Positions 1 to 60,845 of a stretch of 64,000 nucleotides of DNA are shown in pieces. Below the pieces are notes generated by a model, which saw only the letters and a program-made list of their open reading frames with translations, had not been told where the DNA came from and searched no databases. The DNA lies in assembly GCF_006345805.1 (NCBI RefSeq), contig NC_043003.1:53940001-54004000 (forward strand), given 5' to 3'. Position 1 is the first letter of the stretch, and every line of letters begins with the position of its first letter. Source of the DNA: Octopus sinensis. Taxonomy: Eukaryota. A program made the position numbers and the translations under genes.

Positions 1-1699
1 CGAGTTTGCTGACCTTGTGACAAAATTTGAAACCAATATTATGTCGCATATATACTGAAGTGTAGGTCAGACAATTTAGATAGATATTATGCAGAAGTTA
101 CATTTGAAGCTTACATTTTTGTTTTCTTATTTGAAATGCGGACATGAAAAGAAATGAAAGTGTTATATAAAACATTCTGTAACAGAAAATGAAACAAAAT
201 AGACACTACATGAGGAGATTTTAGAAAACACCCAATTTTTTTTTATATAGAAAAACACATTTAAGCCTGTATGTTCTTTGAATAAATAAACCGTATTAAA
301 TATAGGAAAAAATATAATCTAGTCTAGCTAGTGTTCTAGTATTCAATGCCGAAAAGCTGAACTTAGAAAAAAAAATCCAATATATACTAGATAATGGGAG
401 ATAATGAAAACAAACAACCGGCCATACAACTTAGGATAAATCAAATTAATCCTAAAAAAGAAAAAAGTACAAACAGTTACTTAATTTGTTTTACGGTATA
501 TCATAAATACATCATATATATCAAATAATTACAGATCGAAAGAGATGTCATTATGCATCGAAATATATTCGCTCTACGTGACATTAGTTAATCAGTTAGA
601 TATACAGACGTCAGTTCAAAACAATTTAATTTTCCATCAATCAAGTCACACTAGAATAACCTATACATTACAATCTCAGTATATAAGAAACAGATAATTA
701 ATTACTGTTAAATACCAATTAATACTGACAATAACAAACCTTATTTAATAAAGCTACGAATCAACTTCGTTAGAAAATTTCTCGCTGTCTTTCCATATTA
801 TTATGTTAACTTGTCGTTGGTACTTTTATTGTTTTCATTATTCCATAGTAAATAGTGAGTGCATTGTTAGTGCACTAAACTGATTTGATTTCCGAGGTAA
901 AAACGGCAAATAAGTCCTAATAATAGTATTCTTAGAACATCAAAATAAATTCATCATTAATCTATCTTTAATTATTTGTATATGTAACTCACATTCCACA
1001 CAAACTTGTCTGATAAATATTTTATATTACCGAAAAATAATAGTTAATGATTTATATTCAAATACCATTAGTTATTATTAATTTCATTCAACTGAAGAAG
1101 TAAACTACTAATCAGTAAGTAAATAGTAAGTTTTATGAATAGAACAAATACGCATTCTTTTAGAAAAAATACGACGTGATTAAGAGCGTTGTAGTTCGCT
1201 TGAAGCATTGCAGTACAGAAGTAGAAAACGAAAGCAAATGGAAATAAAGAGAGCTTCAAATTTCAGGCGCAAAGCATATCTTCTATTCCTTTATTTTCTA
1301 CTACGTGATTACTTGGCTAGTTGTTTAGCTGACGGCACTAATATCTATTATGATTTAGAATAGATCATACTGGATAAGGAAAAAATCTTACACCAGAAAT
1401 AAAGCTATACTATATCTGTATTGTTATAGTAATGGATTCTCTACTTTATAAGAATACAGGGAAAATTGTTTCATGAAAGAATAGAATATATAATATATGA
1501 TATATATATATATATATATATGTATATCTGTATTGTCATCCACTCCTGGATCCTGGTAGTAAATACTCTTTTTTTCTATTGAATATTACATGTTTCAATT
1601 TGTAATTAATCGTGTATATTATAAAAAGAAGTTCTTTTTTAGCGTTCTAACGATATGAACTTACACCTACATAGTTGATTTCACGGTTGATTTTATTTG

Positions 1700-2250
1700 G
1701 TACTAGTTTAAAAGCCGTACTCTGTGCAAACTTTTAAACTAGCTCCTGTGGGGGATAATTGAGCTTGCAGCTCAAAATTAAAGAGAGCTAAATAGCATGA
1801 CTATAACACGTGGATAAAGATTATATGCCCCAGTGGTGTTTAATCAGGGGTTAAGGACGGTTGAGAATTAATTCTGTAATGCAATCATTCTATTGTTCCA
1901 GTCCTAAGTTGAATCTCAGCTGTTGGCCAATTTGTCCCAAAGTTCTTATCTCGATGTAAAATGTTATTTATCTATTTATGTAAAATGTTATTGATCTCTG
2001 ACGTCATCTGACAAACGCCAACCAGGATGGGTTCAATCAACCAAGCTTTGCCTGCTAGAAAAAGAACCCCGAATACTTCTAAATCAGATCCCAATACTGG
2101 ATGTTCAAGAACAAAAATGAAGGGCAGGTTTTCAATCCCGGGATCATCCAGATTCCAGAATGGTATAACATGACTATGTAGAACAAAGGCAGACTGAGAC
2201 ACAGGGATGTCGGACGGACAGACAGAATTTCGTGTTTATTATTATAGACA
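1700..2250 (-). mobile_element. Possible non-autonomous Helitron-like element (degenerate)
   Basis: ACTAG near the left end (1701 or 1738). The right end GGACGGACAGACAGAATTTCGTGTTTATTATTATAGA resembles the layout of the clear Helitron at 50442-50826. Boundaries are uncertain. Confidence 0.35.
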
Positions 2251-3605
2251 ATAGAACACCTGTAGAATCTTCATCAGTAACATATATTAGATATTTCGCT
2301 ACCATTGTGGAGGCGAAGTCACAGCTTACATCTTGTTACACAAAGGTATACTGCTTTGATTAGATTTAAAATTGGTTGTCAGTTGTATTTCGCGATACAG
2401 ATTTGAGCCTGCATCTAGATACATTATTTCTCTATAGGAGATATTAACTTATTCACTCGTGAGATGGAGTCATCCAAAACTGGGCTGTTCCAATATTATA
2501 AAAGAAAGATATCTTATTGCATTTTTTTTTCTATAGATATCTTTTATATACCGCTGCATATTGATGTAAAGTCGTTCAAGTTTACAATATAGATCTTAAT
2601 GTAGCATTACCTTTTCCTGTTGGTCTTTGTTGTAAAAATATATGGTAGTATTTTTTTTATAGCACCCCAACGAACACATATGAACATTTCCATTCCGTAT
2701 ATTGATGGCATTTAAACGAACTCTATATATTTGCAATTTATATCTTTAGCAATGTATTCTTTGAAAATTTTTTTCTGCACTTGCAAATATTCCGTTGCAG
2801 CGTAACATGTGTCAGTTTTATAGAACACGTGACCAACTGTATGTATCTCCTATGAACTATTAGTGTATAACTTGTGTGTAATTTATATGAACCATTTTTA
2901 TATAGCACAGAACCTGATGTCTGTATTTCATATGAACCATTTTCCATATAATTCGTGAACTGTGTATATTGCTTTGAACTGCTCTGTTTATATTGGAATT
3001 ATAGTTTTTATATAGCCTTCAGCTATTGTTTAATGTTACATTCAATAACATTAATCGTACTGTATAGACCTAGCGGGCTATAAATTACAGGTGGTGAAAA
3101 TGTAGAAACAGACATTTCAGCATATAGATAGAATGGAATTACACTAGTTGTCTTGTCTGTGCAATCAAAATGTTTTATTCTCTACGCATTAAAATACCTC
3201 CTCCACCCAATAACTACGTCACATGAACTATAATTGAACCGGATATACCTTACACGCCCATAACAATTTGAACTTTTTATTGTATTTCTTCTATATATTA
3301 TTCCGCATGCTTTTATTTTGTTCATATTTTTGCCTGTCAGTATATATGTGTCTACACCATATAACCATTATTACTATATTTTATATTACTACAGGTTATT
3401 AAAATATAGTTAAGACTAGAACATTTGAATTTAGATGTGAAATAGTGCTTGCTGTTATGTTATGTTTATTTTCATTCTGTAATGGATGAAAGTTTTATAT
3501 TGGATTTTATAAGATGTTTATTTCTATGAGAATGTATCAATTAGCTATAATTTTCTGTATTAATAATTTCTAAAAATTACGTGAACAGTGAGCTGTATTT
3601 AATAA

Positions 3606-3820
3606 TGGTTTCAAAATTTGGCACGAGGTCAGTGATTTCGGTGAAGGAGGTAAGTCGATTAGAGCGATCCCAGTGCGAAACTGGCACTTATTTTATTGAC
3701 CCCGAAAGGATGAAAGATAAAGTCGACCTCGGCGGAATTTCAACTCAGAACGTAGCAGCAGACGAAATGCCGCTAAGCATTTGGCCCGGCGTGCGAACGA
3801 CTCTGCCAGCTCGCCGCTTA
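3606..3820 (-). mobile_element. tRNA-derived SINE, family A
   Basis: Reverse complement of GGCGGCGAGCTGGCAGA...GTT(C)AAATTCCGCCGAGGTCGACTTT..CTTTCATCCTTTCGGGGTC, seen in >10 copies in the window. The central block resembles the Deu/Nin SINE domain (recalled). Confidence 0.85.
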
Positions 3821-5424
3821 AGCTGTGTTTAATAATAATTAAACTAATGGCTAAGTGAGCATATTTACTAATGTGATTTTCTGGATGTAATACTAACAAC
3901 TGGCAGCTGATTTCTCGATCGAGTCAAGGAAAGTAGACTACATTATTTCGGTTGCAGTAGGCGGTTTTGAACTCTGAACAGAGACTACAAAGTATTTCCT
4001 CCGTTTCTCTAATAATTTCACTAATCCACAATCTTGGGGAAGTACTTTATTTATCGATCCCAAAATGCTGAAAGAGGATCACTGTAGGGAGCTGGAATAA
4101 ATACCACGCACCATTCTAAGTGATGTTCAAACGACTCTGCATCTTCACCTCATTTTTATATAATTACATATAATTGCAAATAATAAAGTACTGATAAATT
4201 TATTTTGATTCTATATTATAAATAATATTTATAGAATATTTATTTACTAATTAATACTTTACTTCCAAAGCTGAATTCTTGTAATAACAAGAAGTATTTA
4301 TTTCATTTTTTAATATTACAAATCTATTAGATTCTATAAGAATATCAAATAGTTTAATAAATTTCATTTAGATTGTATTAAAAAATCGTATTTATTTACC
4401 AAGGTATTTTAGCTAGTAAATTAAATCAATTTCATGTATTAATAATGCACACACTAATTATTATGCAACATTTTCTTGCAAGAGATTCAATAATGAAAAC
4501 TGTCTATCGACTCTATGTTGACAAAGTAATATAGAAAGACAGCGAGAAATGTTCTAATGGAGTTTGATTTACAGTATTATTAAAGTATGTTTTGTTATTT
4601 TCAGAAATAATCGGCATTTAAGTTTTTAATTACCTATTTCTTGTACATTGAGGTTGTAATGTGTACGGGTGTACTTTAAATTGATGTAATCAATGTAAAT
4701 TGAATTATTTGCGGTCGACATTTGTATGTCATTTAGAGCAAATATATTTTTGTGTATTTATGTATAATCATTTCTCTTTTAATCTATAATTGCAATATAT
4801 ATATATATATGTATGTATAATCTATTTTTTGATATATCATTTTTTTCCTTTATTGTTTTACTTAGGACTGATCCGATTTATCTTTAATTAAATTGTACGG
4901 CCGGATGTTTGTTTTCCGATATCTCTAATTGAATAACTATCTAGAAATATATTGAATATTTTCAGTTATTGAATATTAAATATTCTTGATTATTTCTATA
5001 TCCGTTTATTTAACACAGTTTATTTATTCAACGTACGTGCATACATCTGGTTGTAAACAAAGACATACAGTATATAGTTGCAGAAATAATTTTCGAACTA
5101 ATCTCACTTCATATAGCATTTATATTGTTTAATTTTCTGCTAATGTGCGTCTTAGTTATACTCATAGATTGCGTTTCACAGACAAATTTGAAATGAAGGT
5201 TTCTGTCCAAACTGTCTGCTAAATTTCCTTACAACACGTTTAATTCCTAACTGATATAATGATTGCCTGACAAGGATTACCCAAAATTTAGTTTTGATTG
5301 GAACTCTATATTAGTGTTTATATTCTGGAAGACTTATTTTTCTTGCTGGAATTAAATAAGACAACAAAAATAAATGATAATAATTATACATCTACGCTAC
5401 GTTTTCTTAGCGAATTATTGTCAA

Positions 5425-6005
5425 GGCGGCGAGCTGGCAGAAATGCTAGCACGCCGGGCGAAATGCGCAGCCGTATTTCGTCTGCCGTTACGTTCTGAGT
5501 TCAAATTCCGCCGAGGTCGACTTTGCTTTTCATCCTTTCGGGGTCGATTAAGTAAGTACCAGTTACGCACTGGGGTCGATATAATCGACTTAATCCGTTT
5601 GTCTGTCCTTGTTTGTTCCCTCTGTATGTAGCCCCTTGTGGTCAGTAAAGAAATAGGTATTTCGTCTGCCGCTACGTCCTGAGTTCAAATTTCGCCGAGG
5701 TCGACTTTGGCTTTCATCCTTTCGGGGTCGATTAAATAAGTACCAGTTACGCACTGGGGTCGATGTAATCGACTTAATCCGTTTGTCTGTCCTTGTTTGT
5801 TCCCTCTATGTTTATCCCCTTGTGGATAGTAAAGAAATAGGTATTTCGTCTGCCGTTACGTTCTAAGTTCAAATTCCGCCGAGGTCGACTTTGTCATTCA
5901 TCCTTTCGGGGTCGATAAATTAAGTACCAGTTACGCACTGGGGTCGATGTAATCGACTGGCCTATCCCTAAAAATTTCGGGCCTTGTGCCTAGAGTAGAA
6001 ATATT
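5425..6005 (+). mobile_element. SINE family A with three internal ~184-bp tandem units
   Basis: Head GGCGGCGAGCTGGCAGAAATGCTAGC. GTATTTCGTCTGCCG recurs at 5473, 5657 and 5841. Confidence 0.9.
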
Positions 6006-32685: not shown

Positions 32686-32833
32686 GCTGGCTTTGTGGTA
32701 AGAAGCTTGCTTACCAGTCACATGCTTCTAGGTTCAGTCCCACTGCGTGGCACTCTGGGCAAGTGTATTTTACTACAGCCTCGGGTCGACTAATGCTTTG
32801 TGAGTGTATTTGGTAGACGGAAACTGAAAGAAT
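32686..32833 (+). mobile_element. SINE family B head, truncated at a PLE fragment
   Basis: TGGCTTTGTGGTAAGAAGCTTGCTTACC..GGTTCAGTCCCACTGCGTGGCAC..GGTAGACGGAAACTGAAAGAA. Confidence 0.8.
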
Positions 32834-32834
32834 C

Positions 32835-33800
32835 CCTAGAGGCGAACTGGCGTACCGCTTTAGAATGGCACTAGACAAGCTTAAGCTAAGAATTAAGGTT
32901 GTAGAAAGGCTAGGTAACCCTTTCAAATCAATAATCGGTAGGACCTACCCTTTTAATAGAACCCCCTGTACTGATAGGAACTGTATTGTATGTAGAGTTA
33001 GCCCACAGACAAGTTGTAAAACTAGGAATGTAGTCAATAGAATAAGATGTACAGAGGGACGGTGCAGAAACAAGACAGTGACGTGCGTAGGGGAGATAGC
33101 ACGTAGCATAGGAGTGCGGTTTAATAGCATTTGAGGGAACTCAAGGAAGAGAAGAGCTCATCAGTTTTATATCAGCATGCCAGGCAGGAACACGGGGGCT
33201 CACTCAACAACATAGAAATAAAAATTTTGTCAACACATAGAAGGGACGCAACGCTTAGACAAATTACGGAAGCTACACACAAAATAGAAAATAAACCTAG
33301 TCTAAATAGAAAGCTAGAATGGAGCACTAGCACCCATTCACCACAACCCGATGACAATAAGATCTCCATAAATTAATAATAATATGAAACTAATACAATA
33401 GATAGATAGGTCAATGGAATTAAGTAATAAAATACATAGAATATAATAAATTAATACAAATAAAGAAAATAAGTAAAAATAAATAAATACAATAAAATGA
33501 ACGTGAATAAATCTGATAATGCTGGTACGAAACAGTTACCAAACATAGACACACACAGGGATTTACACATGCGCAAACAAAGGCACATGCAACAGGAACA
33601 CAAAGTGGCAGACCGTTCGGAAGGAGAGACACAAAAAAGAAAGAAGAAAGCAAGAAACCACTGATGAGGTCATAGAAGTGTGACGAAAGAACTCTGGCCG
33701 AAATATAATTAATATGAAATAAAGCTGAAGCAAGTGAACACCGAATATAGAGTGTGTGTGTTTTCATTAGCTAAATTGGCAGCATGACCATCTCTATATA
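32835..33800 (+). mobile_element. Penelope-like retroelement 3' fragment: linker, GIY-YIG endonuclease and pLTR
   Basis: CTDRNCIVC..CKTRNVVNRIRCTEGRC..CVGEIARSIGVRF / SVLYQHARQEH..LRQITEA..KPSLNRKLEW is a degraded GIY-YIG with CCHH. One frameshift at ~33127. An HHR motif lies downstream. Confidence 0.88.
33658..33697 (+). ncRNA. Minimal hammerhead motif in the PLE pLTR (imperfect)
   Basis: CCA-CUGAUGA-G-GUCA UAGAAGUG UGAC-GAAA-GAAC-UC^UGG. Confidence 0.6.
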
Positions 33801-35284: not shown

Positions 35285-35803
35285 AATGTGAAATAGAAAG
35301 ATGAGTAATCTTGTAGCAGATTAATCAAAAGTTTAACCGATACCTTGGTAGCAAAAATCACAGCAGAAGACAGCACGGTTGGAGGTACAACCATATGGTG
35401 TTGCAACCGTGCGTTGGTGCGGATAATTGAAATTAAAATATTATTGGTGAATTGAAGAAATGGAGCTGAACGAAGATTGAACAGAAATCGTTTTATTTCA
35501 TTCTACACGTGTTTCGAAAGGCACAATTTACCAAAATCCGATTGAATAATGAGACCATATTGTGTCTTTCTCTTGCCATGGGCTCTTAGGAGCTTAGTTC
35601 GATTTGTTTTGCTCCGCCTCTGTTCTGTTTTTGTTTTTTCCAACGGATTTCCTATTTCTTCCTGAAGAGAAAGACACAATATGGTCTCATTATTCAATCG
35701 GATTTTGGTAAATTGTGCCTTTCGAAACACGTGTAGAATGAAATAAAACGATTTCTGTTCAATCTTCGTTCAGCTCCATTTCTTCAATTCACCAATAATA
35801 TTT
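35285..35803. mobile_element. Fold-back non-coding element in (TA)n with 139-bp inverted arms, carrying an HHR
   Basis: 35436-35574 is the reverse complement of 35665-35803, with a 90-bp spacer. Confidence 0.85.
35654..35744 (+). ncRNA. Type-I hammerhead ribozyme with long stem II
   Basis: AUUUCUUC-CUGAAGA-GAAAGACACAAU(..31 nt..)AUUGUGCCUUUC-GAAAC-ACGU-GUA^GAAUGAAAU. Intact core and palindrome ACACGUGU. Confidence 0.85.
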
Positions 35804-36004
35804 ATATATATATATATATATACTAAGCAATAAGGGTTTAGCAACGAGTTGCCTTACCACATACCGAATTTAGAAATAGCAGTCAAAGGGTTATAGCTAT
35901 TTCTTCTACTAAAAAGGGAGATCTCAGTAAAAACAGCATTTGGAAGGCACAAACAGGTAAGAGAGAATGAATTGACTGCAATCTATCATACATTTTTTTA
36001 GTTA

Positions 36005-36117
36005 TCCACGGACGTACGTTTCGAAATCAAGTTTTAAGGAAAACATACGAATTAAATATTAATATTAAATAATAAATAATTCTATCTTACCGAAACTTCT
36101 TTTCTCTTCAGCGTAGA
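36005..36117 (-). ncRNA. Hammerhead ribozyme, array unit 1
   Basis: Minus strand: UCUACG-CUGAAGA-GAAA AG AAGUUU...AAACUU GA UUUC-GAAAC-GUAC-GUC^CGUGGA. 6-bp stem I and ~80-nt stem II hairpin. Confidence 0.88.
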
Positions 36118-36606
36118 ATACTATAATCATAAATGATTATATATTGAATTTTGAGATACCAGAAGGCAACAACTCCACTCAGTATCAGAGCGAGCTAGAA
36201 CCCGCAACTGGTATCACCGAATTCAATTTGTGAATGAAACGATTGTGTCAACAGCCCCTTCCCACCCGCGTGTAGCCAAAACAAGATGCTGTGGTCATCT
36301 ACTGAGATAAAATATGGTTATCCGTAATAATGAAGGGTGAAATTAATTAATTTGGAAAAATTATCAATTACACCAAGTAGTCTTCGGCATGTAAAAGCCT
36401 CATTCGAGGAAAATTTAAGTAATACTAAGCAATAAGGGTTTAGCAACGAGTTGCCTTACCACATACCGAATTTAGAAATAGCAGTCAAAGGGTTATAGCT
36501 ATTTCTTCTACTAAAAAGGGAGATCTCAGTAAAAACAGCATTTGGAAGGCACAAACAGGTAAGAGAGAATGAATTGACTGCAATCTATCATACATTTTTT
36601 TAGTTA

Positions 36607-36718
36607 TCCACGGACGTACGTTTCGAAATCAAGTTTTAAGGAAAGCATACGAATTAAATATTAAATTTAATAATAAATAATTCTATCTTACCGAAACTTC
36701 TTTTCTCTTCAGCGTAGA
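36607..36718 (-). ncRNA. Hammerhead ribozyme, array unit 2
   Basis: Same motif as unit 1. Confidence 0.88.
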
Positions 36719-37206
36719 ATACTATAATCATAAATGATTATATATTGAATTTTGAGATACCAGAAGGCACCAACTCCACTCAGTATCAGAGCGAGCTAGA
36801 ACCCGCAACTGGTATCACCGAATTCAATTTGTGAATGAAACGATTGTGTCAACAGCCCCTTCCCACCCGCGTGTAGCAAAACAAGATGCTGTGGTCATCT
36901 ACTGAGATAAAATATGGTTATCCGTAATAATGAAGGGTGAAATTAATTAATTTGGAAAAATTATCAATTACACCAAGTAGTCTTCGGCATGTAAAAGCCT
37001 CATTCGAGGAAAATTTAAGTAATACTAAGCAATAAGGGTTTAGCAACGAGTTGCCTTACCACATACCGAATTTAGAAATAGCAGTCAAAGGGTTATAGCT
37101 ATTTCTTCTACTAAAAAGGGAGATCTCAGTAAAAACAGCATTTGGAAGGCACAAACAGGTAAGAGAGAATGAATTGACTGCAATCTATCATACATTTTTT
37201 TAGTTA

Positions 37207-37320
37207 TCCACGGACGTACGTTTCGAAATCAAGTTTTAAGGAAAGCATACGAATTAAATATTAAATATTAAATAATAAATAATTCTATCTTACCGAAACT
37301 TCTTTTCTCTTCAGCGTAGA
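37207..37320 (-). ncRNA. Hammerhead ribozyme, array unit 3
   Basis: Same motif as unit 1. Confidence 0.88.
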
Positions 37321-37845
37321 ATACTATAATCATAAATGATATATATTGAATTTTGAGATACCAGAAGGCACCAACTCCACTCAGTATCAGAGCGAGCTAG
37401 AACCCGCAACTGGTATCACCGAATTCAATTTGTGAATGAAACGATTGTGTCAACAGCCCCTTCCCACCCGCGGTGTAGCCAAAACAAGATGCTGTGGTCA
37501 TCTACTGAGATAAAATATGGTTATCCGTAATAATGAAGGGTGAAATTAATTAATTTGGAAAAATTATCAATTACACCAAGTAGTCTTCGGCATGTAAAAG
37601 CCTCATTCGAGGAAAATTTAAGTAATACTAAGCAATAAGGGTTTAGCAACGAGTTGCCTTACCACATACCGAATTTAGAAATAGCAGTCAAAGGGTTATA
37701 GCTATTTCTTCTACTAAAAAGGGAGTTCTCAGTAAAAACAGCATTTGGAAGGCACAAACAGGTAAGAGAGAATGAATTGACTGCAATATATATATATATA
37801 TATAATATATATATATTATATATATATATATATTATATATATATA

Positions 37846-38037
37846 TAGTAAAGATTGTTTGCCAGCATAACATAGCAGTCCTGGTTTAGACGAATGTTGC
37901 TGTAATTTAACCCAGGAAACATCGTCTCCAGCTGGCTATACGATACGAGCTGGAGATGATGCTTCATGGGACTAAATTACTGCAACATTCGTCCTAAACC
38001 AGGACTGCCATATTATGTTGGCAAACAATCTTTACTA
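37846..38037. repeat. ~190-bp imperfect palindrome (fold-back/MITE-like)
   Basis: TAGTAAAGATTGTTTGCCA..GCAGTCCTGGTTTAG..CTCCAGCT is mirrored by AGCTGGAG..CTAAACCAGGACTGC..TGGCAAACAATCTTTACTA. Confidence 0.85.
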
Positions 38038-38504
38038 CGAAGTACAGTTGTTGAATATCTCTTGTTGTGAAATTTGAAAATAGTAATTTTCTAATATATA
38101 TATATGTATGCATGTATGCATGTATATTTTTGGCATTTTTGTATAATTATTATTATTTTTCTCCTGTTGTATATAGCCGTAAGGTTTCGCGTTGTTATAT
38201 ATGCATAATTCTTCGTCTGTTATATTTATATATTGTCTTATGTGTTTCTGACACAGTATACATTCGCTAGCTTTTTCCCAGTCGCTTAATAACTGCACTG
38301 GCACCACCAAGATTGAATGGTCTCAACGATAATGGTGCAAAACCACGATGATATTTTGGTTCATTGACTCAACTGCGAATACTTCGTGTATGGTGTCGTT
38401 GTCTATATTCCCCGTCCATTAAGTTTTCGTCTAGTTACCCGTTTGCTCTGCATTCATCTAACTTTATCTCCTCGTTGTGTTTTGCATATTTATATATGGT
38501 CATT

Positions 38505-41552: not shown

Positions 41553-42014
41553 GTGTGTGTGTGTATGTATATATATATATATATGTAAAACTAAATTTTT
41601 TCCCGAATTTATGTAAATGTGCATAGAATGATATATCAGTTGAATAAAGTTAAAACATGGTCTGGTTTTCACTTTTTACTTGTGGCATTTAAAAAAAATA
41701 TATAATTTTTTTACAATGTTGAAATGCGTTAAACATTAAAAAAATATTTTGTAATGTTTGACATCGACGTCATCATCGTTATCATCATCATCATCTCTAG
41801 CACCACCAGCGCCACCACCACCACAATCACCACCGGCATCACCACCATATATATAAATATATATATATGTAAAATTATAGTTTAGGATATGTAAGAGATA
41901 CCACCACGCTGGAGATAGCAGCCAAAATTTGACTCTAAAACCGCATTAAATGTTCATACAGCACTCGGAAAGAAGACAAAAAGACAAAATAAACTAGCAA
42001 AAAATTACTGGATA

Positions 42015-42072
42015 ATTCCAGACCCCGGATTTCTGATTCTGCATAAGAAATGCTTTGCCTCATCAGTGGAAT
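42015..42072 (-). ncRNA. Hammerhead motif in a short element (41895-42080)
   Basis: Minus strand: AUUCCA-CUGAUGA-GGCAAAGCAUUUCUUAUGCAGAAUCA-GAAA-UCCGGGG-UC^UGGAAU. 6-bp stem I; stem II is degenerate. Confidence 0.65.
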
Positions 42073-42263
42073 ATACACAGATAGTAACATAAATACACAC
42101 ACATGCACATATATATACATACAACCTACGAATACTTACATATACGAACGTTTACATACACGTATGCACACGACCAGTTTATATTTATGCACATAAATAT
42201 ATATATGTATATATATATAAATATATAATATATATATATATATAATACATACATACATACTAC

Positions 42264-42337
<74 letters not shown>

Positions 42338-42517
42338 AAAGGGCTTAGTAAAATAAATTACTTTGCCGCATACTGAACTCATTAGAAATAGTAGCTAAAA
42401 AACTTTTTTAAAACTATTTCTAATACTTAAAGAAAACTCTCTCTCATATAGTGTTTGCTCAATTCAACTCACGAAAGTATGGGGGTAAAGACATTAAAAA
42501 ATCAAATGCAAAGGTTA

Positions 42518-42573
42518 TTTGAGAACGTACGTTTCAAGATTAGTCAACTCGACATTTCTATCATCAGCTCAGA
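42518..42573 (-). ncRNA. Hammerhead ribozyme in the 559-bp unit
   Basis: Minus strand: UGAG-CUGAUGA-U-AGAAAUGUC GAGUU GACUAAUCU-U-GAAAC-GUAC-GUU^CUCA. Confidence 0.8.
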
Positions 42574-43141
42574 ACTCCTTGGTTTGGATTTGAAAACACT
42601 GAAAGTGGGAGCATACCCTTTCGACTTCTTATCGCTTCTGAAGATCTGCTCGAAACTAACAGTGCCAGCAAACTCAAATATGCAAGCGAAGAATTTCTTC
42701 TGCTCCCCCTTTCCACCAGCGTGGGTTAAAATCAGTAAACACTATGCTTTTTCGGTAAAATCCGAGGCATTAAATAGAGAGAGATGATTATAATTTCAAC
42801 AATTGAGGGTAAAAGTAATTAATTATTAATCAATTTCACCAAGTATTCAGTATGCAAAGGACCATTTAAGGCGAATTCAAATTAATACATTATATAAAAG
42901 GGCTTAGTAAAATAATTACTTTGCCGCATACTGAACTCATTAGAAATAGTAGCTAAAAAAAACTTTTTTAAAACTATTTCTAATACTTAAAGACCACGCT
43001 GGTGGAAAGGGGAGAGCAGAAATTCTTCGCTTGCATATTTGAGTTTGCTGGCACTGTTAGTTTCGAGCAGATCTTCAGAAGCGATAAGAAGCCGAAAGGG
43101 TATGCTCCCACCTTCAGTGTTTTCAAATCCAACCAAGGAGT

Positions 43142-43196
43142 TCTGAGCTGATGATAGAAATGTCGAGTGACTAATCTTGAAACGTACGTTCTCAAA
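43142..43196 (+). ncRNA. Hammerhead ribozyme in the inverted copy
   Basis: TGAG CTGATGA TAGAAATGTCGAGTGACTAATCTT GAAAC GTAC GTT CTCA. Confidence 0.8.
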
Positions 43197-43577
43197 TAAC
43201 CTTTGCATTTGATTTTTTAATGTCTTTACCCCCATACTTTCGTGAGTTGAATTGAGCAAACACTATATGAGAGAGGTTTTCTTTAAGTATTAGAAATAGT
43301 TTTAAAAAAGTTTTTTTAGCTACTATTTCTAATGAGTTCAGTATGCGGCAAAGTAATTTATTTTACTAAGCCCTTTTATATAATGTAATAATTTGAATTC
43401 GCCTTAAATGGTCCCTTTGCATACTGAATACTTGGTGAAATTGATTAATAATTAATTAATTTTACCCTCAATTGTTGAAATTATATATATATATATATAT
43501 ACATACACACATGCAGGCAAATACGTTTGTTATAGTATAATTACGTATGTGTGCAAATTATGAGAGAAGTTCTTGGA

Positions 43578-44725
43578 CGCAAAAGAGATACCTATAGAAC
43601 AACTTGTCGCAACAAGAAAAAGATGAAGCAATCAACAGAACAAAATACCATTTCTAGTAACACAATCCGCATCACCAAAACATTTTTAACATCATCAAAA
43701 CAAATTTGCCAATCATGAAACAAAAGGAAAAATTAAAAGAAAACACAATAACTAATCAAACACTTATCTTAAGCACATAACCTAAAGAAACTATTAACAA
43801 AAGCAAAATTCAACAGGAACAAACAGGATAAAAAATTTACAGTATCCAAGTGTAATGATAATAGATGTAGAGCGTGTCAATACATGCATACTGGTAAGTT
43901 CTTAAGAACATAAAATAGACAGATTTTCGCAAATGCAGATATGAACTGCAAAAACAGAAATTTTATCAACTGCAATAAATACCCGAATTTAGAGGAACTA
44001 TACATTGGCGAGACAGGGAATGCATTATCGGAACGCTCACGAGTCCACAGACAACAAATCCGGAATACTAATCTTCGCCAAATTCCACTGAGCGAACATG
44101 TGGCCAGAAAAGGTTTCTAATTTTTCCTTTCCACAAACTACATGACACAAATGAGGTGGGAAGAAAGATAAAAGTAAAACGGTTTATTAAAATGTTCAAA
44201 CCTGTCCTGAATGGAAATAGCAACAATAATATTGTTAAGGATATGGATTAAAAATATCTTTAACATAGGAATATAAAAAAATTACAGAAGGCTCCCACCA
44301 ACTGATATAAAACGATCGAAACCAATGAATCTTGCTCACTCGTAAAACCATTGCATGGAAACCGCAAGCTAATTGGTTAAAATAAAGACGGGATCTATGC
44401 CAGTAATATCGGTGTACCCGGTAGACCGCGACGTTTAAGTTTCATGCGGATTTGTTAAAGCCATATTCCAAAAATTCGGCTTGTTAGAGGTACAACAAGG
44501 AAGAAGTTAGTCATTTTACAACAATTATCAAGAACTCAACTGCCAGTTAAATACATTTTGAAATCTGATGATTACTACGAACGTATGAAAGCGCTAATTG
44601 AACTTTATGAACATTACAAAATATTTTTTTGAATTTTTGACACACTTCAACATTGTAAAAAAAAAATAATATCCTTTTAAAATACCATAATAAAAAACGT
44701 GAAAAACAGACCATGTTTTAACTTT
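43578..44725 (+). mobile_element. Penelope-like element 3' part (Zn-finger linker, GIY-YIG, pLTR), decayed
   Basis: NLKKLLTKAKF..KCNDNRCRACQYM..MNCKNRNFINC..LYIGETGNALSERSRVHRQQIR..IPLSEH..FIKMFKPVLN. The CX4CX2C linker is as in Neptune-type PLEs. Confidence 0.9.
44562..44599 (+). ncRNA. Minimal hammerhead in the PLE pLTR
   Basis: AAU-CUGAUGA-U-UAC UACGAAC GUA-U-GAAA-GCGC-UA^AUU, with palindrome AGCGCU. Confidence 0.75.
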
Positions 44726-44799
44726 AAATATATATATAATTGACAGAATGAGATGACAAAGCCAAGACTGGGAGGAGTTTTCAGGACATTAAGGAAATA

Positions 44800-44847
44800 G
44801 TCTTACAGCTGTTTCTGGAATATTATGGATATCCCTTCATCAGAGAC
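44800..44847 (-). ncRNA. Hammerhead ribozyme in a short non-coding element (44735-45090)
   Basis: Minus strand: GUCU-CUGAUGA-A-GGGAUA UCCAUAA UAUUCC-A-GAAAC-AGCU-GUA^AGAC. Confidence 0.82.
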
Positions 44848-53040: not shown

Positions 53041-53289
53041 CATCGCAAGAGAAGTAGATACATAGATACATATATACATTGTTTAATCAAAAGCAGGAGA
53101 GAATAGGGACACAAAGGAAATGAAAGAGAAAGAGAGAAAATGAGAGAGATAATACATATATAGATACATAGACACAGCAAATATTGGGTGTTAGTTTCAC
53201 TTTTCATTACCACACGAGAATGAAATTAAACTAAATATCTAACTAAATGTCTATGTATCAATATATGTATTATATATATATATATAAAA

Positions 53290-53925
53290 GACCGGTTTAA
53301 CTTTTCTAGGCGTCCCCCAGCCGAACTCTCGGCCCTTCGATGTCTCCGACACCTTACTGACATCATCATAAAACTGACCGACAAGGGTGTAGCCGTGGTG
53401 GTGTGGCGCGCAGACCTCTGCAAGGCCGAAGCTCTCCGCCAGCTTCAAGACACTCCTTCTACTGCCCTATGCCCTCTGACTCCACACCCAGCTACCAACA
53501 GACTGTGTCCTCCACTATTCATGACCTCATTTCCTCCTCCAGTCTCCCCACCGCCTCCAACCTCGTTGTTCACACCCCTCGCACCTCCACGATTTGTTTC
53601 CTCATCAAAATCCACAAACCTAACAACCCTGGCCGCCCCATCGTCTACGCCTGCAACTGCCAAAAAAAAAAAATGGGTATGACCCTTCTGTCCGGCATTC
53701 GTCATGATAGATCGCTAGCCACTACACATTCTTTATTTTCTCTCCTTGTTTCTTTATTTTCTCTCTTTATGTTCTCTTCTTGTTTCTTTCTGTGTTCCTT
53801 TCTGTGGAAAAGCTTAGGTTCGAAACGTTAAAGACTTTTTCTCTTCTCGAGCATTATGCTAATACATCTGTTTGTTGTCTACACTACCTGTCTTCGTCTT
53901 TAGTTTTTTTTGTGAATTCTCCCTA
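53290..53925 (+). mobile_element. Penelope-like element fragment (RT N-terminal part joined to pLTR)
   Basis: DIIIKLTDKGVAVVVWRADL..EALRQL..PRTSTICFLIKIHKPNNPGRPIV corresponds to the PLE RT motifs (ADKG..V; LPKIHK...PGRPIVS). Flanked by TA tracts. Confidence 0.88.
53798..53833 (+). ncRNA. Minimal hammerhead-like motif, variant core
   Basis: CUUU-CUGUGGA-AAAGC UUAG GUUC-GAAAC-GUU^AAAG. The core deviates from CUGANGA. Confidence 0.45.
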
Positions 53926-56077: not shown

Positions 56078-58145
56078 GCATAGAAAGAACCTCATTTTCA
56101 ATGTGGCTGGACTACAAGGAGGCCTTTGTCTCTGTCCCCCACTCTTGGATGCTAAAAGACTTTTGACTTGCTAAGTTCCAGTGAGCATAATCAATGCTAT
56201 AGCTGACCTGATATCATCGTTGGCCACCATCTTGAAGTTAAATACAACGAGTGATTGTATTATCACTAATAGAATACAGTATCGCAGAGGTATATTTCAA
56301 GGGGATAGCCCCTCTATGATGTTTATACTCTCTGTAAACCCTTTGTCATTCATTTTAAGGAAGTGTGAATGATATCTCACTAGTTTACAAGGAAACAGAA
56401 ATACCAAAATTACACAGTGCTCCTTTGTGAATACTTGAAACTATATTAAAAGAATATGCATGGGATATAAAAGAGCCTTGACTTGGTTAAAACATTCTCA
56501 AAGGATATATATTTGGAGTTTGGTCAAGGTAAATGTTGCTATATGATCGCGAAAAGAGGGAAAGCGGTAAAAAAACAAAACAAACAACATCTCCATCAAT
56601 GACCTGACTGTTTCTCCTATATCTGTTACATATATATTGGGGCGGATGGAAACATATCATACGATGGTACCTGTAACGAGACACGTGTCACTAAAGAATA
56701 TTACAACCGAATAAAGAAAATATGGATCTCGAAACTCTCTGCATTCAATAAAACTGTGGCCCATAATGTGCTCGCAGTGCCAGTATTAATTTGGCTACTT
56801 GGTTGAACGTTTGATGAGATCTGAGCCATTGATGTGACAACTCGGAAGATACTAACCAACACGCATAATTTCCACATCAACAATGACGTAGACCGCCTCT
56901 ACTTTAAACGAGAACAAAAGAGCAAAGGCTTAAAATCAGTCCAAACTGCCTTTGGATGTCCTATCATAGCCCTTCGAGAGCATCTTCAACCACCAAGTGT
57001 CTAAGTGCATTCTTTGACCAAGTTTGCATACAAGAGGCTGATAATATCACGAGACTTGTCTGTTAACCTTAGACATATGCCCAAAGAAGTCGCACGACTC
57101 TACCGCAACGTATCATCAGATAAAAGGATGAGCGTATATGAGCAGAAGATCATGCATGCATATATCAGTAGAAACCTCCGAGGTGATAGCAACATTGATC
57201 ATCAAAACAGTCTATCATCGACCAACAACTGGATTACTAACTCCCACTTTGAAGGTTATGCGTTTGCAATTCAGGAACAAGAAATATTAACCAAATACAT
57301 GATGCACAAAAGGGACAGAAACACAGGAAAAGTAGCAAAATGTGATAACCGATGCAGACTTTGTGGAGTTACCGCCGAAGATATCACCCACATCATAAGC
57401 AGTTGTCCGAAAAAGTCATCACGGTATTATCTATCGATGAGAGATGATGTTGTAGCTAGGACACTCTATAATGAAATCAGTCGAAAGATAACACCGAGAC
57501 CAAAGAATATGCAATAGGATAGAATATGCAATATGATAGAAGCCACAGCCATTCATAATAAAAAGGGGTACTGAATATCCCAGTGAAAACCTCAATAAAA
57601 TGTAAGCATAATATACAAGATATAGTAATTTGGGATAAAGAAGAGAAACTGTACAGTTGTGGAAATCAGCTATCCAGCGGATATTAACATAAAGCTAAAA
57701 ATCAGTGAAAAAGAATACGCTAAACTATTGAGGAATCTACAGCTACTCTATCCAGATTACAAGTTCAGGTTTATACTTGTAATTATCGGGGCATTGGAAT
57801 ATGTCACACACAACCTAAATACCAATCTTGAGAAATTAGGCTTCTCAAAACCAGAATGGAGAAAGCTGATTCCAAGACTACAAATCCAAGTCATCACAGG
57901 AACTGTAAAAATCTGTAAAACTTTCCAGAAATTTATCATTTAAGTATATATGGGCATGTGTAGATATGCAAGTATATGCATAAGAATACACACATAAAAT
58001 AAAAATACAAATCTTCACATAGACATATATATATAAAACTCCCCTGTCGATGTTGTCGAAATTCCAATGGAGGAATCTTGGATCTAGGTTAGAAACCGGC
58101 TCTTTCTCTACTGGCTAGAAATCTTGAAATAAAACTAAATAATAA
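56078..58145 (+). mobile_element. RLE-type non-LTR retrotransposon (R4/Dong-like), 5'-truncated and decayed
   Basis: WLDYKEAFVSVPHSW; RRGIFQGDS; FEGYAFAIQEQEILTK; CRLCG..EDITHIISSC; R.D.VA; DIVIWDK..VVEISYP (PD-(D/E)xK endonuclease). Confidence 0.9.
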
Positions 58146-60727: not shown

Positions 60728-60729
<2 letters not shown>

Positions 60730-60845
60730 AAATAAGGGTTTAGCAACAAGCTGCTTCACCACCTACCGAAAATTTAGAAATAGCAGCCAAAAGACAGCTA
60801 ATTCTTTTCACTACAATTTTAGGACTCCACAGACAATAATATTTG
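60728..60845 (-). mobile_element. Truncated end of a relative of the 600-bp HHR unit, in (TA)n
   Basis: AATAAGGGTTTAGCAACAAGCTGCTTCACCACCTACCGAAAATTTAGAAATAGCAGCCAAA aligns with 35829-35887. Confidence 0.8.

Follow-up and report, generated by a model that had tools for sequence, protein, structure and literature searches.

A Shared Block with a Predicted RNA Fold at the Insertion Junction of Two Retrozyme Families in Octopus sinensis

Two tandem families of non-coding repeats, with units of 600 bp and 559 bp, were found in the 64,000-nt stretch of Octopus sinensis DNA analyzed here (hereafter the window), and each unit carries a type I hammerhead motif on the minus strand. Outside a block of approximately 185 nt, the two units show almost no resemblance. 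Within this block they are predicted to form the same RNA helices on the hammerhead strand, and the insertions of both families end at the same place inside it. Judged from the sequences of these two families, the block is a structured, strand-specific RNA module at a fixed 3' junction. It is, on balance, probably the part of the RNA that the reverse transcriptase (RT)/GIY-YIG protein of a Penelope-like element (PLE) must recognize, in which case the units would be PLE-dependent and non-autonomous.

Results

Two Hammerhead Repeat Families

The window is AT-rich and contains microsatellites and SINE-like repeats throughout, the latter of which presumably resemble octopus SINEs. Hammerheads were called by a motif scan with a core pattern and are predicted ribozymes. 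The 600-bp family forms a minus-strand tandem array of 3.3 units (35820..37791), which is flanked on both sides by (TA)n and contains three hammerheads. One of these (36613..36712, minus strand) has a CUGAAGA core, a long stem II, a palindromic loop III, a GUC triplet, and a 6-bp stem I; further copies are located at 36011-36111 and 37213-37314 on the same strand. The left end of the array (35820-35823) corresponds to the 3' end of the minus-strand RNA and would be the RT start. At the right end (37791), 5' truncation stops the array about 33 nt before a fourth ribozyme cut.

The 559-bp family is present as an insertion with two arms and one hammerhead per arm. The left arm (42330..42993, minus strand) is a partial tandem of 1.2 units that begins at (TA)n, at the putative start site 1 described below, and it is followed by an inverted, 5'-truncated arm (42994..43485, plus strand). 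The hammerhead of the unit (42524..42567, minus strand) has a CUGAUGA core, a U-U mismatch at the base of stem II, and a GUU triplet; the copy in the inverted arm is located at 43148-43190 (plus strand). The palindromic loop III is common to the 600 and 559 hammerheads, and hammerheads with a palindromic helix III have been described (PMC4209133). In addition, a sub-family related to the 600 units (81% over 89 nt) is represented by a 5'-truncated copy between (TA)n runs at 60728..60845 (minus strand).

The 600 array contains no ORF of at least 90 aa (stop to stop), and the 559 unit has a single 111-aa stop-to-stop frame, which is antisense to the hammerhead. Animal non-LTR retrozymes also consist of non-coding units in tandem, from dimers to multimers, with a type I hammerhead in every unit and a low GC content, and 600 and 559 bp lie inside the reported unit range of 51–972 bp (PMC7229834; 10.64898/2026.07.22.740005). 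The insertions bear PLE-type marks as well, namely a partial tandem, an inverted 5'-truncated arm, a tail, and a (TA)n target. EN+ PLEs such as Neptune, Hydra, and Naiad (PMC8557442; PMC3846280) likewise insert as partial tandems flanked by (TA)n, with an inverted arm that is 5'-truncated, sometimes a tail, and no visible duplication of the target; unlike the units described here, they have an ORF. By the sequence-level definition, both units are non-LTR retrozymes with PLE insertion marks.

We detected the 600-bp unit in 20 of the 24 public runs listed, none of them on record as RNA; these represent 10 organisms and 12 studies, with 1367–5865 matching contig pieces per large run, indicating a widespread multicopy family. 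Summed contig depth, which does not measure copy number, was raised over about 36320-36530 in two runs and uneven in a third.

A Block Common to Both Units

The block is located at 36330..36512 (minus strand) in the 600 family, with further copies at 36930-37112 and 37533-37715 and a half copy from 35820, and at 42802..42987 (minus strand) in the 559 family. It is 68–73% identical between families. BLAST of the 559 unit against the 600 units gave 68.5% over 165 nt (E-value = 4.5e-7), and the local alignment of whole units scored 170 compared with 72 ± 10 (maximum 112) for 300 dinucleotide shuffles. The common block of about 150 nt that had been proposed is therefore present, and it is longer than proposed. 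Conservation is highest around the junction, and 128 of 176 ungapped columns are identical.

The original prediction had described the units as otherwise different. This holds for the remainder of the units, in which no significant alignment was found (score 64, shuffle maximum 76), but other features are shared. The distance from the hammerhead cut to the junction is 191 nt in one family and 193 nt in the other, and a second motif, G-rich on the RNA strand (36256..36273, minus strand), is identical at 16 of 18 positions with about 42706-42723, a value reached by 1 of 500 shuffles. Considering this motif together with the type I hammerhead and its same palindromic loop III, the families are distant relatives rather than unrelated. 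The 5' end of the inverted 559 arm (42994-43012) starts almost exactly at this G-rich motif.

Pattern scans for the block gave eight matches within the window, none in metagenome contigs, and none in viral contigs. Profile and covariance-model searches of the window returned the known copies only (best other match, E-value = 0.17). No Rfam family matched the window at its gathering score (best E-values within the units, 0.21–0.85), and a SECIS or other curated Rfam cis-element was rejected on this basis.

Predicted Fold on the Hammerhead Strand

Folded independently, the blocks of both families are predicted to adopt an identical helix order on the hammerhead strand: hairpin H1, then stem P, which closes a junction containing hairpin H2, a U/A-rich single strand of about 27 nt, and hairpin H3, and finally hairpin H4. 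In the 600 family (all coordinates on the minus strand), H1 (36474..36506) has 9 bp and one double change between families. The 5' and 3' arms of stem P on the RNA are located at 36461..36470 and 36383..36392, respectively. H2 (36437..36460) is stacked on P and consists of 3 bp, a 2x2 internal loop, and 5 bp; it shows two double and two one-sided changes. The single strand (36410..36436) includes the main insertion junction at 36422-36425, the putative RT start site 1. H3 (36398..36409) is small, weakly conserved, and alignment-dependent, and H4 occupies 36336..36374. The fragment at 60728 contains H1, the 5' arm of P, and H2, and terminates at site 1.

Stem P was the element on which the original prediction was centered. 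Its arms were located in both units, TTCGGCATGT (36383-36392) and ACATACCGAA (36461-36470) in the 600 family and TTCAGTATGC (42846-42855) and GCATACTGAA (42926-42935) in the 559 family, and the 10-bp stem carries two compensatory double changes between families, as claimed. We also verified that the single mismatch, C36388/A36465, pairs as G-U solely on the minus (hammerhead) strand. What had been called the loop of this stem does enclose 68 nt; it is a branched junction rather than a simple loop, and the block has four further helices. A pseudoknot involving the H3 loop, assessed by eye, was discarded: in the 600 family this loop has only 4 nt. The 600 monomer as a whole also gives an extensive predicted fold.

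Covariation between the Families

In a 38-pair consensus structure (H3 excluded), five pairs are changed on both sides (one in H1, two in P, and two in H2), a further four are changed on a single side, and of the 148 cells one is unpaired. This count leans in favor of the structure because the structure was derived from the same rows. In a cross-family test, the structure of one family was scored on the other, using two permutation nulls and two alignments. When the 559 structure was scored on the 600 family in the first alignment, 6 of 53 pairs showed double changes (1.6–2.0 expected; P-value = 0.0007 and 0.009) and 7 were broken (14–15 expected; P-value = 0.0002 and 0.001). The reverse test gave 3 double changes in 35 pairs (P-value = 0.31 under the looser null and 0.013 under the other) and 3 broken pairs (6–9 expected; P-value = 0.007 and 0.003). 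The second alignment yielded five double changes from 559 to 600 (P-value = 0.046 and 0.013) and three from 600 to 559 (P-value = 0.25 under the looser null and 0.012).

Compensatory changes thus exceed the permutation nulls in most settings, the excess of double changes from 600 to 559 being nonsignificant under the looser null, and broken pairs fall below the nulls in all four hammerhead-strand tests (P-value = 0.0001–0.007). All five double changes of the consensus are transitions and one of them involves CpG sites, so such changes are cheap to reach. The comparison is based on two independent families plus one sub-family fragment, which is below R-scape grade.

Strand Preference

Folding z-scores were -3.9 and -7.2 on the hammerhead strand versus -2.1 and -4.1 on the opposite strand, and the consensus energy was -32.9 versus -23.0. 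The Watson-Crick double changes are also found on the opposite strand, as Watson-Crick stems must give, and the block folds as single-stranded DNA on both strands as well (z = -2.8 and -3.5).

Sequence variants were collected from contigs of four public runs at 80% likeness. The test was defined on the 12 of 36 substitution sites that lie within the block, leaving out the other 24 sites and 7 indel rows. On the hammerhead strand, 1 of the 12 variants breaks a pair (a loop-closing one) compared with 4.0 expected (P-value = 0.02); on the opposite strand the number is 3 of 12 (P-value = 0.24). On the hammerhead strand, three stem variants exchange an A-U pair for a G-U pair or the reverse. Being few and mixing sub-families, these variants are supporting rather than decisive evidence for the strand.

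Compensatory changes and pair-keeping variants support that part of the original prediction which proposed a conserved RNA structure, and the G-U wobbles and the variants point to the hammerhead strand. Its other part, that the element serves recognition or priming by the RT, is plausible but unproven, as internal initiation in a stem-loop has been shown for one PLE (PMC11167929).

Insertion Ends

The left ends of the 600 array (35820-35823), the 559 array (42330-42332), and the fragment (60728) all abut (TA)n. Relative to the C of TAATAC, which lies in the single strand, they map at about -3 to +3 nt. All three fall within the 68-nt loop of stem P, as had been predicted. One contig of another organism joins (TA)8 at 36422, in the same column as the window ends; in the 20 of 281 loose-end rows listed, none of those for the three large runs showed this (TA)n junction. 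The chance of one cross-family coincidence within 7 of about 580 positions is approximately 1%, a value that the 2–3 nt of TA microhomology at the junction would raise. Because any retroelement should have a fixed 3' end, the end position alone does not show that the structure causes it.

A fourth 3' end in the window (43485, in the inverted 559 arm) also lies at (TA)n, about 100 nt beyond site 1 and just past H4. From this one example, it is a candidate start site 2 or "tail" end.

PLE-Related and Other Elements

A decayed PLE 3' end with a GIY-YIG domain and an upstream C-x4-C-x2-C motif (Neptune/Nematis-like), together with a 3' region ending at (TA)n, was found at 43500-44726 and 41572-41758; the decayed PLE end adjoins the 559 insertion. 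Its GIY-YIG match (E-value = 0.007) is below the curated cut-off, and the protein has two relatives at 63–67% identity. A related fragment (85%) on the minus strand ends about 73 nt further.

The block is absent from the 3' region of this PLE and from the other PLE-type elements in the window. A GIY-YIG-based search with the window PLE protein gave three metagenome loci, none of the three with the block. On a metagenome contig (L003), a compact type I hammerhead motif was observed at 1313-1346, about 340 nt downstream of the end of a PLE-like ORF. The file of Naiad, Chlamys, and Hydra consensus sequences published by Craig et al. (2021, PMC8557442), among them Naiad and Hydra elements of octopus that prefer (TA)n, gave scattered single 8–10-mer matches only in a keyword search for block motifs. 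Across these three sources, that is, the window PLE 3' region, the three metagenome loci, and the one consensus file, no autonomous PLE with the block was found.

A third hammerhead family (35287-35805; hammerhead motif at 35662-35735, plus strand) is inserted as two inverted arms, head to head and bounded by (TA)n runs. One of its arms is about 150 nt longer, corresponding to a long tail, and it has no block match. An inverted-repeat insertion between (TA)n runs at 37846-38092 has arms that are 86% identical, with an extension of about 55 nt on one of them; scans detected no hammerhead core in it. The end extensions of the window elements thus give tails of 55–150 nt, longer than the 30–40 nt in the literature. 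Further hammerhead-like cores were observed in other short elements on the minus strand (44804-44843 and 41872-42090). Decayed retroelement ORF fragments are located at 32817-33134, 53230-53700, and 57005-57950, two of them PLE-like and one LINE-like by eye; Pfam gave no match for the first two.

Discussion

Retrozymes have been proposed to be mobilized by PLEs (Cervera and de la Pena 2020, PMC7229834; Li, Clavereau, and Pollet 2026, 10.64898/2026.07.22.740005), and pLTR sequences suffice for mobilization in trans (Arkhipova et al. 2013, PMC3846280). A reference for such a process is PAc, a Poseidon PLE of Anolis, which nicks both strands of AT-rich DNA (Frangieh et al. 2024, PMC11167929). Its RT starts internally in a stem-loop, 85–92 nt downstream of the hammerhead cut; two start sites bound the tail, and uncut RNA is used as template (PMC11167929). 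The octopus insertions fit these steps: the targets are (TA)n, the 3' end is fixed and lies in a loop downstream of a hammerhead, an array runs through three hammerheads, and an inverted arm has a second 3' end that would bound a tail. On the other hand, PAc is autonomous and the units here are non-coding. The PAc loop, located within the ORF, has an AC-rich sequence, whereas the one described here is U/A-rich, non-coding, and about 190 nt from the cut. The PAc tail of 30–40 nt compares with about 100 nt here (one example), and no covariation is reported for PAc in the main text (PMC11167929).

From these features we infer transcription, ribozyme cleavage, protein binding, the mechanism of starting, and the kind of helper involved. 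A multimeric or circular hammerhead-strand transcript would fold as H1-P[H2, single strand, H3]-H4. A PLE protein would bind the block fold and nick a (TA)n target, and cDNA would begin internally in the single strand, aided by 2–3 nt of UA pairing. Continuing upstream past H2, P, H1, and hammerheads that remain uncut, copying may then give arrays of more than one unit, and a second start just past H4 might produce the inverted arm with its tail of about 100 nt.

Other explanations differ from recognition by a PLE protein in what they take the structure to be for. If the block were a relic of common descent or of a recent module swap, its structure would be unselected. The units do have other relics in common, such as the hammerhead spacing and the 16-of-18 motif, and every double change is a transition; however, pairs are broken less often than under the nulls in each of the four hammerhead-strand tests, and the variants avoid pair breakage, so we regard a mere relic as highly improbable. 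Selection might instead act on the helices as DNA, either as cDNA hairpins or as a GIY-YIG endonuclease site in integration or self-targeting. Both strands of the block fold as DNA, Watson-Crick covariation is strand-neutral, and the endonuclease of D. virilis Penelope requires tail sequence for recognition (cited in PMC11167929). The one-sided changes (36362, 36365, 36464, and the fixed 36388/36465) argue against such a role, which we consider quite improbable, since they give A-U and G-U pairs on the hammerhead strand but A-C mismatches on the cDNA strand.

It is also conceivable, though unlikely, that the RNA fold is real and serves stability, circularization, ribozyme control, or host-protein binding, and that the RT simply begins wherever a U/A-rich strand is most accessible. 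The RNAs of non-LTR retrozymes form abundant, structured circles (PMC7229834), and the extensive predicted folding of the whole 600 monomer and the TA microhomology at the junction are consistent with this. Nevertheless, sequence plus structure are kept only around the start site, and other A/U-rich unpaired stretches of the units are not used as 3' ends among the four ends seen. Recognition of the block by the PLE protein therefore remains the explanation that we favor.

A broader and distinctly improbable extension is that PLE RTs choose their RNA through a telomerase-RNA-like core, with a closing helix, a 5' hairpin as protein site, an enclosed start strand, and a distal hairpin, and that retrozymes keep a minimal, covarying example of this ancestral fold as a portable PLE insertion signal. 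The layout of the block resembles the template core of telomerase RNA, in which a long-range helix closes a loop that contains a single strand, next to a hairpin on the 5' side and together with a stem-loop further away (Podlevsky and Chen 2016, PMC4993307). Among RTs, those of PLEs are most closely related to TERT. The block shows no sequence likeness to telomerase RNA (Rfam negative) and no evidence of a pseudoknot, and copying passes H2 instead of stopping. An identity as telomerase RNA was rejected: there is no Rfam match, the single strand contains no telomeric repeat, and copies run through H2. The resemblance is a speculative, topological analogy, with no sequence support for homology. 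If the layout were more than analogy, it would bear on the origin of telomerase RNA.

Retrozymes as a class, and internal initiation in principle, are already known; the conserved start-site fold appears to be undescribed. The available text on described animal retrozymes reports no conserved start-site structure or fixed integration junction, whereas here these are common to two families. No account of a conserved start-site fold in retrozymes was found in literature titles and abstracts; subscription papers, Repbase/Dfam, and supplements could contain one. The main text of an octopus repeat annotation (PMC13282606) does not mention ribozymes. A recent study (10.64898/2026.07.22.740005) raises at its close the question of what guides PLEs to their RNA and start site and of how retrozymes come to be mobilized, and only one PLE has been reconstituted so far. 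Agreement between two non-coding families in little other than this block marks out about 185 nt as a candidate cis-signal, and the natural compensatory variants are suited to mutational tests of it.
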